Virus record (IMG/VR): IMGVR_UViG_3300045125_000101
Location: 74,068-138,067 of that record
DNA from: a virus
Length of the DNA stretch: 64,000 nucleotides
Direction: 5' to 3' (one strand)
Under the pieces are notes generated by a model that ran no database searches, was not told the origin of the DNA, and worked only from the letters and a program-made list of their open reading frames with translations. Positions within the stretch are counted from its first letter, which is position 1. Every line of letters starts with the position of its first letter. The position numbers were made by a program, and so were the translations under genes. Positions 21,942-56,944 of this stretch are shown here, piece by piece.

Positions 21942-22328
21942 TGGTGGACGTGGCGGAAGTCGAATCCGCGTGCTGTATAATATAACTACAACCATATACA
22001 TGCTTATCTCTTATAATCCGACTAAGTTTGGTAGAGCACCACTTAGAAGTTGAGGACTCTGTATTATCTCGCTGTTGTTACGACCCTCGTCCTCACAACA
22101 GCCAGCAGATGGTCGAGCGTTGTTATTCCATATATCTGCGTCAATAGATAAAACGGGTAGCAACTTAGGCTGCACAGCAACTTCGCTCTTGCGGCTTACG
22201 CTCAAGAACGATGTCTTTGCAAGATTTCTCTTAGCATTTATTTTTTCCAACGGGTATTATACAGAGACATTAGACTCTGTGCATGCGGACTCGTATCTAC
22301 ACTATATAGTAGAATCCAGAACACGCCC
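21942..22328 (-). ncRNA. ssrA: tmRNA
   Basis: 5' GGGCGTGTTCTGGATTC; 3' T-arm plus CACGTCCACCA with G3:U70; resume context AAATAAAT-GCT; tag frame ending GCA GCC TAA. Confidence 0.93.
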
Positions 22329-39871: not shown

Positions 39872-39947
39872 TGGTGGACCCAACAGGGTTCGAACCTGCG
39901 ACCTTCTGCTTGCAAAGCAGCTTCTCTACCAACTGAGATATGAGCCC
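39872..39947 (-). tRNA. trnA: tRNA-Ala(TGC)
   Basis: CTGCT-TTGCA-AGCAG region, G3:U70, CCA. Confidence 0.95.
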
Positions 39948-40624: not shown

Positions 40625-40689
40625 GTAAAATTGCGAAGGTAGCTAGTATCTCAACCAAGCTATTAAGTCGTTGCGACACCTTCTTAAAT

Positions 40690-40787: not shown

Positions 40788-40863
40788 TGCGGGGTGCATC
40801 GGATTTGCACCGACTCTCTATAGATTGACAATCTATCGCTTGTGCTTCATAAGCTCCCACCCC
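40788..40863 (-). tRNA. trnD: tRNA-Asp(GTC)
   Basis: ATAGA-TTGTCAA-TCTAT; no intact CCA in this read. Confidence 0.78.
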
Positions 40864-42717: not shown

Positions 42718-43899
42718 GATTAGTTTGTTCAAACCATCACCAACAATGGTCTTATGGTCGAATGCGAGAGTTGGTAATTGTTTGATGTCAAACCATCTTT
42801 AGCTTCCTCTGCATCATCTTGACCTGATACTTTTTTATTTGCATACTCTTCTGGAAGAATTATACCAAAAGCATATGATTTTGACCAAGCATCTTTTGTA
42901 TCTCTGGGATCTCTGCCTGCTCCTTCATATACACCGATTGGAACAACCATACTTTCCAAATTAGCGATATACAATCCAGTTTCTTCTTGAAGTTCTCGTA
43001 TAGCAGCTTGTTTCGGAGTTTCTCTACCAGGTTTCACTCTTCTCCACGTTTTGCGTTTGTGTCTATAAATCCACCAGGCAACGCCCATTTACCACCTTCA
43101 ACTCCTGCTTTTCTTTTGATGAGTAGAATTTTGTATCCTTCGGCGTCTTCCTTCAGAACAATGTTGTCTACCGTTGGGTTTGGACCTTTGTATCTATAAT
43201 TGGACTGAGAAGCAAATTGACTTCCATCATAATCCTTATTCAAAATCTTTTCTACAAAGGTATATGAACTTGGAACAAGAAATATAGCTTGAGAAGGTTG
43301 AAGTAGATGTACAGTACCTGTTCTATCCAACACAACATCATATCCCATCTGTCTTAAAAGAGTATTGAAATATATCATTGATTTCTTAGCTGGACCAGCG
43401 CTACCTTCCACCTTGTTGCTGATATAATTCATCAAACCATAAACATATTTTCCATCACTGTCTATTGGGTATAGCATATCCTTAGAATTGTCTTCAAACT
43501 CTTTGAGAAGATCATCAAACGATGAACCAAACTTCTTTTCGTATAAAGCTTTAAGTTTATTCAAATCAGATTGTTTTGAATTATAATTCTCAAGATCTAT
43601 TACTTTGTTTGTGTTTTAACTTTAAAACATTTACAAAAGGTCTGTCTTTTTCGAACAAGTAATTTTTTTCTTGAATATCATCAAATACGTCACTCAGCTT
43701 GTAGGCGTACAATCCAACCGGAGTTGAATATGGAGTCTTGGGATTGATTCCCACTTTTTCAATGGACGTGGAATGTTATGAAATAATTTTCATCATCTTT
43801 GTATTTTCTCAAGGACTCAATTGCAGAAACCTTTGGATTCATTTCTGGATTCTTTCTCGCTTCTTGTATCTTGTATAATAAGTCTTTGAGTTTAATCAT
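42718..43899 (-). CDS. ADP-ribosyltransferase-like domain fused to Nudix hydrolase (frameshifted)
   Basis: MIKLKDLL; GINP...TPVGLYAY; GYDVVLD...QPSQAIFL; C-terminal TVDNIV..ILLIKR..WALPGGF..ETPKQAAIRELQEETGL..GRDPR. Confidence 0.75.
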
Positions 43900-43930
43900 A
43901 TCTTATAAATATGAACGTATCCAAGTAAAA

Positions 43931-44005
43931 TGGTGGGAATGGACGGTTATGCTCCGTCTCACACAGATTCACAATCTGTTATGCTTCTATTACATCACAA
44001 TCCCC
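43931..44005 (-). tRNA. trnH: tRNA-His(GTG)
   Basis: ACAGA-TTGTGAA-TCTGT, CCA. Confidence 0.85.
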
Positions 44006-44010
44006 GTAAA

Positions 44011-44086
44011 TGGCTGTCCCAGCACGGTTCGAACGTGCGACCTTGAAATTAACAGTTTCTTGCTCTGCCAACTGAGCTATGGGACA
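44011..44086 (-). tRNA. trnN: tRNA-Asn(GTT), second copy
   Basis: GAAA-CTGTTAA-TTTC; near-identical to 41984-42059. Confidence 0.93.
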
Positions 44087-44092
44087 ATAAAT

Positions 44093-44177
44093 TGTAGAGA
44101 GTGTTTGGTCAAGAGTGCTTATTACGCTACATGAACCCATTGCGATATTCCAATGGCTGTACCCTTTACTCTCTGTA
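44093..44177 (-). ncRNA. Structured RNA motif, copy 2
   Basis: Same junction sequences as 42545-42633 with different but complementary stems. Confidence 0.6.
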
Positions 44178-44320
44178 AATTTTTATTTAAGATACTTTTT
44201 GGCTAATGGCGTTAATTCCATTCCAGCATCTTGCAGTTGTTTGACTGCTTCTTTTCTGGTTCTTATCTTGTTTTTAGTCTACCTTCTAGCGTTGGTAATT
44301 TGATTTTATTTTTCATATAT

Positions 44321-44397
44321 TGGTGGAGGCTGATAGGAGTTGCACTATCTTCTCGCCGTCTTCAGCGGCACGTGAGCACTAGCTTCACCAAACCTCC
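44321..44397 (-). tRNA. trnF: tRNA-Phe(GAA)
   Basis: TGCCG-CTGAAGA-CGGCG, CCA. Confidence 0.82.
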
Positions 44398-44406
44398 GTA
44401 AATTAA

Positions 44407-44569
44407 TCCCGCTCATGAGCTTTACGAGGCTCACTAAATTTGTTACCTGACCAATGTGGCGTTTCGTTCCTCATTGGGCTATTAGCTCACGATAACATTA
44501 CTTAATGAGTGCCCATTGAAACATAAGGCATCTTCAACCTATCCATGAGGTCCGGTTCGTGCTTCGGGA
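44407..44569 (-). ncRNA. Unassigned ~165-nt structured RNA
   Basis: TCCCG/CGGGA ends, TCGTGAGCT/AGCTCATGA, CCAATG/CATTGG; fills the spacer between tRNA-Thr and tRNA-Phe. Confidence 0.45.
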
Positions 44570-44571
44570 AA

Positions 44572-44646
44572 TGGAGCCGTGTAAGGGACATGCACCCTTC
44601 TATATAGTTTACAAGACTATCACATCGCTATCTATGTTTACACGGC
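44572..44646 (-). tRNA. trnT: tRNA-Thr(TGT)
   Basis: ATAGT-CTTGTAA-ACTAT, CCA. Confidence 0.85.
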
Positions 44647-44652
44647 GTAAAT

Positions 44653-44727
44653 TGGTGCCCCATGACGAGAATCGAACTGTCGCATGAACCTTGGCAAGAT
44701 TCCATCCTACCACTAAATGAATGAGGC
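44653..44727 (-). tRNA. trnG: tRNA-Gly(GCC)
   Basis: GAATC-TTGCCAA-GGTTC, CCA. Confidence 0.85.
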
Positions 44728-44732
44728 GAAAT

Positions 44733-44809
44733 TGGAGCCGTGTAGCAGAATCGAACTGCTCTCCATTGTTTTGCAGACAAGTGATCACCAACCAGCTATC
44801 TCACACGGC
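44733..44809 (-). tRNA. trnC: tRNA-Cys(GCA)
   Basis: TTGT-CTGCAAA-ACAA, U73, CCA. Confidence 0.85.
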
Positions 44810-44815
44810 ATTAAA

Positions 44816-44907
44816 TGGTGGACCGTATAGGAATCAAACCTATCGCCATTCCTCTATACACAATTTTCAATCATTGTTGCGAATGTTTACATCAGCTAAT
44901 ACGACCC
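44816..44907 (-). ncRNA. tRNA-like RNA with Ala identity (G3:U70, A73) and no D stem
   Basis: GGGTCGT/ACGGTCC-A-CCA; T arm ATAGG-TTTGATT-CCTAT. Confidence 0.6.
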
Positions 44908-44912
44908 AAAAA

Positions 44913-44999
44913 TGGTGGTGCCGATTGGACTCGAACCAATGTAGACCGTTAGGTCAGGAGATTTACAGTCTCCCGCGATTGCCGCTACGCGACGACACC
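44913..44999 (-). tRNA. trnY: tRNA-Tyr(GTA), second copy
   Basis: GGAGA-CTGTAAA-TCTCC, CCA. Confidence 0.92.
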
Positions 45000-45004
45000 G
45001 AAAT

Positions 45005-45080
45005 TGGTGCGGTAGACAGGGTTCGAACCTGCGACAACCAGCTTGGAAGGATGGCGCTCTACCAACTGAGCTACTACCGC
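45005..45080 (-). tRNA. trnG: tRNA-Gly(TCC)
   Basis: Loop CTTCCAA, canonical D and T arms, CCA. Confidence 0.93.
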
Positions 45081-45087
45081 AAAAATG

Positions 45088-45750
45088 TTAGTATTTACTT
45101 TTTATACGCTTGGTCGATTTACGTGGCTTTTTCTTTACCACGCATTCGTCCTTACACCTGAATAATGCCACACCCAGTATAATTGTCAAGGCCGCAGTGA
45201 AATATACTACTTTTTCATATGCTGCTAATTCATCCAACGCTATTTTTCTTGATTGTTCAGCAGCGTGAAACTTATTATCTAAAACTTTGTTTATAATTTC
45301 TGTCATAGGATCTATTACCCTATATAGTTCGCCGTTATATAACTGAGCGTGTATTTCTTTTACATCTCCTCGCACACTTAGTATTTGAACTTTCTTTATA
45401 TATTCTGCTACTTTTTGTGCACGAATAAATAATTCTTTATCATCTAAAGTTTCTACACCATTTACTGTTTTCTTATATGCTTCAACCAATGAATGCTGAG
45501 TTTGTAAAGTTTTTGATAATGTATTTCTAAACTGGTCTATTGTAATAAGGTCGTGAGATACTTTGACTTGGCTATCTACAAGTGTAAGACCATATGAATC
45601 AAACAATGGGCTAAGTGTATTTGTTACAACTTCAAACTCTTTATATGAATGGTCAACCTTTGAACGCAACATAGAACTTGTATATAGTCCTTTAGATACA
45701 AAGATAGACACAATAAACAACATTACGATAATGGCGTGTTTTGATTTCAT
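45088..45750 (-). CDS. Two-TM membrane protein with helical periplasmic domain
   Basis: N- and C-terminal TM segments flanking a ~150-aa helical region. Confidence 0.6.
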   Translation of the reverse strand: MKSKHAIIVMLFIVSIFVSKGLYTSSMLRSKVDHSYKEFEVVTNTLSPLFDSYGLTLVDSQVKVSHDLITIDQFRNTLSKTLQTQHSLVEAYKKTVNGVETLDDKELFIRAQKVAEYIKKVQILSVRGDVKEIHAQLYNGELYRVIDPMTEIINKVLDNKFHAAEQSRKIALDELAAYEKVVYFTAALTIILGVALFRCKDECVVKKKPRKSTKRIKSKY

Positions 45751-46066
45751 CTTTTTTAATAAACTTTTCTGGGTTTTTAGATACTTGCTTGGCTAATCTT
45801 GCCAATCCTTGTAGCAATTCTGGTGATATTACACCAACTACACCATATATTATTGCTTTGGTAAGGCTAGATATATCTGTTTGCTCTAGCATAAACCAAG
45901 CTATGATAGAGCATATAGAAGCAGCAAGTATCTTTTTGAATTGCTCAACCCACGGCATTTTGCTTGCGTCTGTGAGCAATCTAGCAACCATACCAGCAGC
46001 ACCTACAAGTGCTACTAGCCAACCGCCAGTTAAAAATTCTTTTATAAGGTCTTTGTCATCTGCCAT
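45730..46066 (-). CDS. Holin-like membrane protein
   Basis: Three short TM helices (GGWLVALVGAAGMVARLL...IIYGVVGVISPE) and a basic tail. Confidence 0.6.
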
Positions 46067-46129
46067 ATATTCGTATATCTATAGATATAATATATATACT
46101 AAAAAACTATATAAAAATATTTTACAATT

Positions 46130-46420
46130 AGCAAATACGTAATACTACGCATTTCCCATTCCGAACCGCGTGGAGGTTTGTAAAAACTCGGAACACAACA
46201 AAAGAATATAACTCAACGGGGTTGATTACCCATCTTATTGTTATACTCTTTTATTTATAAGAACAATATATTCACTTCGGCCTCACAACAAGTTATCCCT
46301 AACACTATCCTGTCCTTAACTTGTTGGTATTGATTCCCACAAAACGGTCCTCTCTATTATGAGTCCGGTGGCTATTTTAACGCTTATAGGTGCGCTTTTA
46401 CCTATCTAACCTAACGAAAT
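46130..46420 (-). ncRNA. Unassigned multi-hairpin RNA or leader (~290 nt)
   Basis: 10-bp and 13-bp helices; directly downstream of a promoter and boxA-like motif. Confidence 0.45.
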
Positions 46421-54411: not shown

Positions 54412-56944
54412 TCAAAAAGTAAAGAACTCGTTGATTGCTTCTTCATCTTCGCTATAAAGAGTCCAAGTCAGAGCATCATAAAAACTCTTGAGTTTCTTTT
54501 CTAACTCAGCGTCCCAGATGCGGTTACGGTCAATATACTGGTTGATAAAGTCCATAACAATCTTAGGGTCTTTGCCATCATCCTTGAACGCCAATCCATC
54601 CAAACCAAATGGATTGCTTTTTAGATATGCCCATTTGATTTTACCGCCATTCATAATAGGCTCTGTTTCTGATAGGCTGTATCTCTTTAGCATATCGTTA
54701 TATGCAAGAGCGGCCTTGCATTGAGCAGTAGAACCATCAACAAAATGAAATAGACTGCGGTCTTTTGGATTGAAATCTGTCTTGGCGTCTGTGTTGGCAA
54801 TAAACCGCACAGAAGTATTCTTGGCGATATCTTCAAGGTTGAAAGATTTCATAGACGCCTTGAAGTCCAAAATCTTCTTATCCAGTTGCTTCTTTTCTGT
54901 TCCGCGAAGAATATCCTCCAATACAGAACTCATAAAGTCTCTGAACTTCTTGGGATAACTTGAACGCACAACGTCAAGACCTTTGATTTCAATATCGTTG
55001 GTATCTTTGCTCAGTTCCATATTATATACCTTGAGCATTGCATAACGCTTCTTGACAATCCAGAATGCGGCTTGAGCAACAACATCTGGAGCAATCTTGA
55101 TGCGGTTGTCTGTGCTGTTGAACATCTTGACCATCATCACCTTATAGAAGTCATTGAGACCATCCGCGACTTCGTTGATAGTCTTGATGGCATATGGCTT
55201 GATTTCGGAAACCTTCTTCGTGCTTGGCAAGAGAGTTGATGTCAAGATACAAAGAGTCTGTGTCAATATAGATTACATAATCTTTATCTTTTGTTTCGCA
55301 GCGTTTATTGAAACGAGCATTTACAAACTTGGCACTTGTCTTGATGATTTCTTGACCGGTCAAAGTTACGCCGCCGCATTATCAAGGTCATAGAACCTAA
55401 AGATAGGCAGACCAAGAACACCATATAGCGAGTTGAGCAAAATCTTCTGCACTTGCTGACGACGCTTCCAGAATGTAGTAGCAGCCTTGTCGCCACTATC
55501 CGACGCCTCTTTCATCTTGTTCTTATACTCTACACGTTCAGCAAACCATTTCTTGAGAATGTCAGGAATACATCCAATCTTCTTCTGGTCATATACCACG
55601 CCGTTCGCACTTACAGACAAGTTGTTTTCAACAAAGAACTGGTTGAGTTGCTTGTATGTATATTTGTCATCCGCAAAATCAACAACATCTTCTGTCTGCT
55701 TGGCATACTTCTCTGCACTCCAGTTATTGATTACTGCCATCTTGGTCTCTGGAGAGATGTTGATGCTCATAATCACGCTGGGATACAGCGAGTTGATATC
55801 GGCAGAACACACCCAGTCATAACGACCTTGTTAACAGGGTCTTTTACATATGCACCAACAAATCCTTCTTCAGAGTCACTCGTCGTCTCCATCCGTATCT
55901 TCATCATCTTTTGTTTGCGGTTTGTTTGGAGCAACAAGTTTCTTGGCGGCGTAGATATGTAAGCAGCGCACCTTCAAGAACTTGGAAGAGATATGAAATC
56001 TCTTCATAACCAACGTGGCAAACGTGACAGATGCTCATCGCAAGGTCAATAAACTGCAACTTGTCGTTCATTTTGCGAACAAGCACAATATCGTGCAAGT
56101 TGTATTCAATGAATTTGTTGATGTCCGTCTTCTTCAGATTGTCCAGCGAGCCTTCATCATAATCCACCTTACCTACACTTAGTTCTTCTCTCGCGACAGT
56201 ATCAAGACGATAGTTCGCAAGTTCTTCTGGCTGTATTTCTTATACAACAACAAATAGTCAAGCGTATTTACGCCAGCAATAGTCATCTTGTTCTTGAACT
56301 TGTTGAAATAACAAACTCCAATAGGAGACAACTTGCCCGCCGTTTCTTCATCAAATACCTTGAGTAGTCTGGCGTGCAGATATGGAAAGTCAAAGCCGTC
56401 GATGTTCCATCCCGTAGCAATCGTTGGATTGACTTCTCTCCATTTATCAAGAAAGCATTCAGCAATCTTGTTCGTGAAGATATGAAGATACTTCAGCACG
56501 TGCATTTGCCCCGCTTTTACAACCTCTTCTTCATCAGAGAACAAAGCAGTAATACTTGTTCTTTGCTGGCATCGCACAACGCAATGGCAGTGTAATCTTC
56601 TGCACTGGATTTTCGACATTCGGATATCCTCAGCCAGTAGAACTCCACTTCAATGTCAAGCACTGCCAGTCGATGATTAGTGAATACATCGTCGCTGCTT
56701 CCATAAACATCTATCAGGAAACGAGTTTCAACCGGAACGATTTGACTCGCGCAGTGAAGAGTCTCTTGGATTGAACTTCTCTTCAACGCGGCCTACAAGT
56801 TCTTGACCATAACATGACCTCATATTTGCCACCCTTCTTCTTGCGATATGCATATGGTACATATTTCACTCTGGCATAACCATTTTGGTCATCCCAAACG
56901 TGCACAAGGTTGGCTTTGCGGTCATAGAATGCTGCTTGATACAT
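54412..56944 (-). CDS. Family B DNA polymerase (frameshifted)
   Basis: LDIEV, GWNIDGFDFPY, ADINSLYPS, KILLNSLYG, YIDTDS, KKRYA, IKGLDVVRS. Confidence 0.95.

Follow-up and report, generated by a model that had tools for sequence, protein, structure and literature searches.

A tRNA-shaped element without a usable anticodon loop in the tRNA gene array of a large freshwater phage

Inside the string of tRNA genes of a large freshwater phage lies a tRNA-shaped element, hereafter X, on the minus strand at positions 44816-44907 of the window, that is, of the whole 64-kb stretch of DNA analysed here, which makes up the final part of an IMG/VR virus record of 138 kb, about 64% complete. X has the acceptor and T arm of a tRNA, an alanine-type acceptor among them, it has no usable anticodon loop, and it is real DNA found in four studies. 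Our preferred reading, which we put forward tentatively, is that X gives a processed, alanine-chargeable tRNA mimic that does not decode.

The window encodes pieces of a family B DNA polymerase, a clamp-loader-like AAA protein, an RNA ligase and homing-endonuclease motifs, together with a long array of tRNA genes on its minus strand and a tmRNA gene. tRNAs for all twenty amino acids are present in the genome, including Phe(GAA) (44325-44397), Ala(UGC) and Ser, and the first-pass annotation of this DNA was right in saying that a tRNA-Ala, here Ala(UGC) at 39872-39947, and a full tmRNA (21942-22328; 83.8 bits with the Rfam tmRNA model) are encoded separately from X. On the same strand as X, tRNA-Tyr(GUA) lies 5 nt upstream (44913..44999) and tRNA-Cys(GCA) 6 nt downstream (44733..44809); this is the second Tyr copy, and its allele type is the one that the relatives L002 and L046 have. 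The 5-6-nt spacers of X are of the same CCA-(A/U)UUU style (CCA-AUUU punctuation) as those of the flanking and other array tRNAs, and a scan of the minus strand from 43800 to 46200 found no terminator-like site around X.

The array holds other small genes that depart from the usual pattern. ARAGORN missed minus-strand tRNAs Gly(GCC) (44657-44727), Thr(UGU) (44575-44646), His(GUG) (43934-44004) and Asp(GUC) (40790-40863), as well as the Phe(GAA) gene mentioned above; several of these have the non-canonical T loops UGCAUGU, UGCAACU, GCAUAAC or UGCAAAU and D loops without GG, and together they represent a second style of tRNA beside the canonical ones. A small structured RNA between tRNA-Tyr and tRNA-Arg, at 40625-40689 (minus) in the window and at L002:8387-8469 in a relative, has in the window a closing stem GAAGGU/ACCUUC and the end GCA, and its sequence differs in relatives.

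All seven pairs of the acceptor stem of X are formed by direct reading, its 5' strand GGGUCGU (44901..44907, all positions of X being on the minus strand) facing ACGGUCC, which is followed by the discriminator A73 and an encoded CCA (44816..44826); the pairs include G1:C72, G2:C71 and the tandem wobbles G3:U70 and U4:G69. Next come a candidate D arm, UUA(G)C-UGAU-GUAA (44887..44899), with four pairs, a bulged G and a tetraloop, and CAUUC (44881..44885), the 5' strand of a helix at the anticodon-stem position, for which GAUG of the D region is an alternative partner. The distal hairpin, GCACAAU-GAUUGAAA-AUUGUGU (44858..44880, one extra base removed as described below), has 7 bp and an 8-nt loop, and is followed on the 3' side of this long arm by the 6-nt bulge AUAGAG (44852..44857) and by GAAUG (44847..44851), the 3' strand of the helix. 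The 3-nt linker GCG (44844..44846), at the position of the variable loop, leads to the T arm AUAGG-UUUGAUU-CCUAU (44827..44843), in which the T54, psi55 and A58 positions are kept and U stands for C56. The acceptor with its G3:U70, A73 and CCA, the T arm, and the CAUUC/GAAUG helix with its 3-nt linker thus read as they had first been annotated. In a strict search of the 138-kb record on both strands (276 kb), which required a 7-bp acceptor without mismatch, a T stem of 5 bp, a T loop of the form UUxxA and NCCA, the matches were true array tRNAs, three longer calls ending on one such tRNA, and X, with nothing elsewhere; by this whole-record scan, the acceptor/T-arm module of X is not due to chance.

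Independent assemblies correct X by one base. Words were sampled from the 541 bases around X, and 14 public runs contained at least half of them; contigs of four runs from four studies were compared with window positions 44500-45200, of which 45100-45200 had no cover. Every X-covering contig of the four runs equals the window minus one base at 44877, one T of the TT at 44877-44878, and three of the four runs have zero substitutions in X. The window has a further one-base excess at 44549, 44667 and 44788, common to the runs covering each place, and no substitution lies beside any of the four positions. The record therefore has single-base insertions in this stretch, and the extra base at 44877 is most likely one such error. 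Since all covering contigs have one base fewer, the true length of X is 91 nt; the 92 nt first annotated are those of the window letters. With the base at 44877 removed, the distal hairpin becomes an unbroken 7-bp stem. In tRNA-Gly(GCC), removal of the extra base restores the T stem, and ARAGORN then calls this tRNA, while the D loop of tRNA-Cys, treated in the same way, becomes the D loop of the relative L043. Further anomalies described for this window should likewise be compared with independent reads; candidates for such artefacts are 6-nt loops and split genes, such as a fragmented DNA polymerase (54412-56619) and a split Nudix gene (42729-43564).

The copies of X in the runs do not differ anywhere in the 44500-45084 block, not even in the spacers, because of which selection on X is neither shown nor excluded by them. 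In run X8, contigs break near gene ends (e.g., 44816-44903 for X), and as the branching of shuffled cassettes explains such breaks too, they allow no conclusion on expression; runs labelled 'METAGENOMIC RNA-Seq' are probably DNA, and true metatranscriptome runs contained no more than small shares of the sampled words.

It had been allowed at first that polished reads might restore a normal anticodon loop; the contigs give a 7-bp stem and an 8-nt loop, and the distal hairpin without a canonical 7-nt anticodon loop is borne out. X cannot read codons; this hairpin and loop, together with the 6-nt bulge, make an arm of about 12 bp in place of the anticodon loop, and from established tRNA geometry an arm of about 12 bp would not be expected to bring its loop into the decoding centre. 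An intron-bearing tRNA was considered and rejected, since the 28 nt enclosed by CAUUC/GAAUG allow eight single excisions, and none of these yields a 7-nt loop that has U33 as well as a purine at position 37. A tRNA-like gene of a relative, L046:1964-2065, does look as if it had an intron, unlike X: about 30 nt with a small hairpin come right after the 5' strand of its anticodon stem and are followed by GUGAUAA, a perfect tRNA-Ile(GAU) loop, and its 3' end is ACA, not CCA. In a 501-nt search, X gave no match to the Rfam tRNA model RF00005 at E<=10 and none to the Rfam tRNA-Sec model, and ARAGORN made no call on it, either in the window or after correction. With ARAGORN thresholds of 70-80% only forced calls were obtained, and at 80% the drawing of X is a tRNA-Phe(GAA) that has a 3-nt 'intron' and a long variable region lacking an arm.

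The alanine identity marks (G1:C72, G2:C71, G3:U70, A73 and CCA) are all in X, which supports the alanine identity given in the first-pass annotation, and among the array RNAs read the combination of G3:U70 with A73 occurs in X, tRNA-Ala and tmRNA only. Position 4:69 is U4:G69 in X, as opposed to C4:G69 in the tRNA-Ala and tmRNA of the phage, and U4:G69 beside G3:U70 might weaken recognition by alanyl-tRNA synthetase (AlaRS). This enzyme needs the acceptor helix only; minihelices and microhelices for alanine, which need no more than an acceptor/T-arm helix with G3:U70 and A73 to be alanylated, were reportedly described by Francklyn and Schimmel in 1989. Such minihelices are laboratory constructs, whereas X is a natural gene with extra arms and with U4:G69 beside G3:U70. 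Natural allo-tRNAs with G3:U70 are alanylated in Escherichia coli (PMC5389517).

A GTDB scan yielded six compact alanine-acceptor RNAs of 71-72 nt, from TM6, Saccharibacteria, WWE3 and others (L062:3943-4014, L070:3031-3102, L065:3649-3720, L063:4401-4472, L064:68-138 and L072:3381-3452), which have G3:U70, A73, a covarying 4-bp D stem, a UGAU or UGGU tetraloop and a possible 8/4 branch. They share with X the C-UGAU-G D tetraloop, the UUUGAUU T loop and the ACCA end, and the first six acceptor pairs of L065 are identical to those of X (GGGUCG/CGGUCC); unlike X, they have 7-nt loops, some with Arg anticodons. Their loops vary (ACG, GCG, AGG or none usable), an upstream ACACTTCTTG motif is common to four of the six, and ARAGORN calls one of them tRNA-Arg(GCG). 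We know of no paper on these RNAs.

A covariance model, R1, built from three of these compact RNAs gives X a full-length match (19.7 bits, E 0.003 in the 64-kb window). X had been described as lacking a D stem, but R1 aligns a 4-bp one, U9-A21, U10-A20, A11-U19 and C13-G18, with G12 bulged and a UGAU tetraloop. X can accordingly be modelled as a compact four-armed cloverleaf that has A8, A22 and a 3-nt variable loop, and a hairpin and 6-nt bulge in place of the anticodon loop. The score of X is in the range of the Cys (19.9) and Gly (18.7) tRNAs of the window, and R1 ranks its ordinary Arg (26.3), Leu (24.1) and Ala (23.4) tRNAs above X; the likeness to the compact RNAs is therefore claimed for shape only, not for kinship. 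Computed energies are -19.1 kcal/mol for the long arm without the D stem and -17.4 kcal/mol with it; rival tRNA-like folds, in which GAUG/CAUU forms a Sec-like D hairpin (7/5, 8/4 or 9/3 branch), come to between -12.5 and -17.1 kcal/mol, and the unconstrained minimum, with a 3' half that is not tRNA-like, to -21.5 kcal/mol. Thermodynamics by itself thus favours non-tRNA pairings in the 3' half of X. Ensemble probabilities are 0.83-0.99 for the pairs of the distal hairpin and 0.43-0.59 for GAUG/CAUU as against 0.05 for CAUUC/GAAUG, and the fold of X has no excess stability over shuffled sequences (z about -1.0 to -1.3).

The elbow of X is also of an uncommon type. U at T-loop position 56 is found in this array in X only. 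The GTDB scan that yielded the compact RNAs collected every genome stretch with GGUUUGAUUCC-N5-GGUCCACCA, which gave 12 tRNA-like matches with a U56 T loop; ten of the 12 have G-A, not the usual G-G, in the D loop, in other words A19:U56 replaces G19:C56. Among the ten are tRNA-Ala(CGC) genes of two Opitutaceae and one Nanosyncoccus MAG (L066:7129-7204, L069:758-833 and L061:3979-4054), whose D loop is UUGAUA or CUGAUA and whose T loop is UUUGAUU, a rare elbow variant that X shares. The UGAU D tetraloop and U56 of X fit the A19:U56 rule, which modestly suggests that the contact between D loop and T loop is kept in X, or that X descends from a tRNA of the A19:U56 type. The same T loop, with G-A in the D loop, is seen in an unannotated tRNA-like gene of a relative (L008:4626-4699, between tRNA-Arg and tRNA-Glu), which has the anticodon loop CUGUUUG (GUU with U37); it has the 9-mer UGUAUAGAG in common with X, probably by chance.

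As a non-decoding mimic, X would be a tRNA-derived small RNA gene, co-transcribed with the tRNA array of the phage and cut out like the neighbouring tRNAs, because its acceptor/T-arm module and the CCA-AUUU punctuation of its spacers are the same as theirs. The host AlaRS would then charge it by way of G1:C72, G2:C71, G3:U70, A73 and CCA. The role of X, if it has any, would most likely be to act as a decoy, or to compete, for host proteins that hold tRNAs by the acceptor, T arm or elbow. Transcription, processing, alanylation and target are in this scheme what we infer. A search of the 138 kb for an antisense partner of X gave a longest match of 11 nt, which is at chance level.

Almost as likely as a non-decoding mimic is a neutral relic, that is, what was once a tRNA gene, perhaps for a tRNA-Ala of the A19:U56 type, whose anticodon loop was disabled by a one-step palindromic insertion and which is carried without function in a cassette-shuffling array. 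The distribution of X is in keeping with this. Eight IMG/VR loci and five metagenome loci carry relatives, 76-86% identical, of the gene that lies upstream of the array (45088-45750); X is absent from these 13 loci by blastn and from the whole records of four relatives, and it has no homologue among 50,697 phage records by megablast and blastn. Pattern scans of IMG/VR (exact 3' 28-mer, loops only with free stems, and D-stretch) found no homologue either, an acceptor-anchored pattern gave 32 chance matches in GC-rich coding DNA and no homologue, and the loops-only pattern found none in GTDB genomes. The comparison of homologues proposed earlier, which was to ask whether G3:U70 is conserved, therefore had none to draw on in any collection searched, and neither covariation nor selection is demonstrable from it.

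In relatives, the slot that X occupies holds different cassettes: after Tyr, L045, L046, L050 and L057 have a 105-nt hairpin RNA without CCA, L059 has tRNA-Gln(UUG), its order Tyr-?-Cys-Gly(GCC)-Thr being otherwise the same, and L056 has tRNA-Thr. Some contigs of runs X2 and X8 join Tyr straight to Cys (a weak observation, the shorter side being 24 nt), and natural variants without X seem to exist. X looks like one cassette among many in a shuffling array. The arms of its hairpin form an almost perfect inverted repeat, which is what one template-switch event would produce, and this, like the rejection of X by the Rfam tRNA model and ARAGORN, also speaks for a relic. Against it, the roughly 28 bp of the four arms and the insert are all intact, as are the identity marks, the T-loop signature and CCA, and a relic that was still processed with its G3:U70 would still be charged. 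No ancestral tRNA can be named: the alignment scores of X to the tRNA-like modules of the array and to the tRNA-Gln of L059 are at the level of shuffled sequences or of unrelated tRNAs, and X is not measurably closer to any one array tRNA than to the others.

Two of the RNAs of the relatives are worth describing in their own right. The 105-nt RNA (L046:1606-1715, and in L045, L050 and L057), between tRNA-Tyr and tRNA-Gly(GCC), is conserved and has an 8-bp closing stem, GAUCAGUA/UACUGAUC. In L056, a 64-nt RNA, GCACU...AGUGC-ACCA, lies about 90 to 25 nt upstream of tRNA-Tyr (3' end 9626), between tRNA-Gly(UCC) and that tRNA-Tyr, and has an acceptor-like stem and CCA and no clear T arm.

A more specific form of the mimic, which we consider unlikely, is that X is a phage weapon, stable, alanylated and inert towards the ribosome, to which the long arm and its 8-nt loop would give a target of its own. 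Possible targets would be a host anti-phage enzyme that attacks or senses the acceptor ends or elbows of tRNAs, or a transferase that uses aminoacyl-tRNA, in which case X would donate alanine outside translation.

In the first-pass annotation, X was compared with the tRNA-like domain (TLD) of tmRNA standing alone, and that it should be a true mini-tmRNA, a TLD without a tag whose binding of SmpB serves either to rescue ribosomes without tagging or to titrate SmpB, now appears very improbable. The precedent for such a gene is the 'TLD only' tmRNA of mycobacteriophage DS6A; molecules of this kind are reported to be strong inhibitors of tmRNA, with titration of SmpB as a possible mechanism (Hudson et al. 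2014, PMC4131195). Like X, this 'CDS-less' RNA is phage-encoded, is in the same size range (about 83-91 nt for the two), has an alanine-type acceptor with G3:U70 and a T arm, and has no message and no usable anticodon. The spacing of acceptor, inner helix and T arm is similar too, the layout being 7 bp, 15 nt, helix, 3 nt and T arm in X and 7 bp, 14 nt, helix, 4 nt and T arm in DS6A, and the G3:U70, A73 and CCA of X would suit a TLD. However, a 501-nt search with the Rfam tmRNA model RF00023 gave no match to X at E<=10, whereas the DS6A element (JN698994 28478-28560), used as a positive control, scored 43.2 bits and the tmRNA of the phage, as given above, nearly twice that. In the DS6A element the D loop reads UGG..UCGAC, and the T stem is preceded by a GCAC linker where the model has GGAC; at those sites X has AUUAGCUGAUGUAAA and GCG, and so lacks both the GG..UCGAC D loop and the GGAC linker. 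In a TLD, the space at the position of the anticodon stem is filled by SmpB; in X, a D stem and a helix at the anticodon position can form in that space. Unlike DS6A, the phage also has a complete tmRNA, with which an SmpB decoy would compete, and the 138 kb of the record, about 64% complete, contain no SmpB gene. Membership of X in the tmRNA TLDs is thus not supported, though X may conceivably act like one.

Two other systems bear comparison with X. The stable RNAs C and D of phage T4 (species 1 and 2) are, like X, small non-tRNA genes packed among the tRNA genes of a large phage; T4, like the phage of X, has family B DNA polymerase, clamp-loader-like and RNA ligase genes, and the 3' end of rnaC resembles a T arm (CCGGG-UUCGAAU-CCCGG). 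The T4 RNAs differ from X in their length of 119-139 nt, in having no sequence likeness to it and, as far as read, in not showing the alanine identity set, and rnaC has no encoded CCA. To our knowledge, the function of rnaC and rnaD is still unknown. Allo-tRNAs, which occur in bacteria and in phage tRNA clusters and some of which have been discussed as regulatory or inactive (Mukai et al. 2017, PMC5389517), are like X about 90 nt long, with a longer anticodon stem and, in some, G3:U70, and their 8/4 or 9/3 branch and tetraloop D hairpin can also be drawn for X. X has neither their long variable arm nor their 7-nt anticodon loop, and they decode in E. coli (PMC5389517). No stable stem forms in the variable region of X; the one stem that can be drawn there makes the fold less favourable in energy.

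Least probable of all is that X decodes as an allo-tRNA-like 8/4 or 9/3 cloverleaf, with GAUG-UAAA-CAUU as a Sec-like D hairpin and the 7-bp hairpin as the anticodon arm, its 8-nt loop being read as UGA or GAA so that alanine would be placed at serine or phenylalanine codons or the frame would shift: A8:U80 and U9:A79 can lengthen the acceptor stem, the ensemble prefers GAUG/CAUU to CAUUC/GAAUG, ARAGORN at 80% does draw a tRNA-Phe(GAA), and allo-tRNAs with G3:U70 exist and decode (PMC5389517), but such folds, though drawable, are 2.5 to 6.6 kcal/mol worse than the 7/5 long-arm fold, the variable region would be 14-18 nt without an arm, a 7-nt loop is impossible, the tRNA-Sec model does not match, and Phe, Ser and Ala tRNAs are already in the genome.

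The tRNA arrays of phages are usually read as aids to codon usage or as spare parts against host tRNA nucleases. A chargeable mimic that does not decode, as X may be, fits neither of these roles and would join genes of the DS6A type. If such RNAs are charged and stable, they would point to a second use of the alanine system outside decoding, for which X provides a defined test case of 91 nt.
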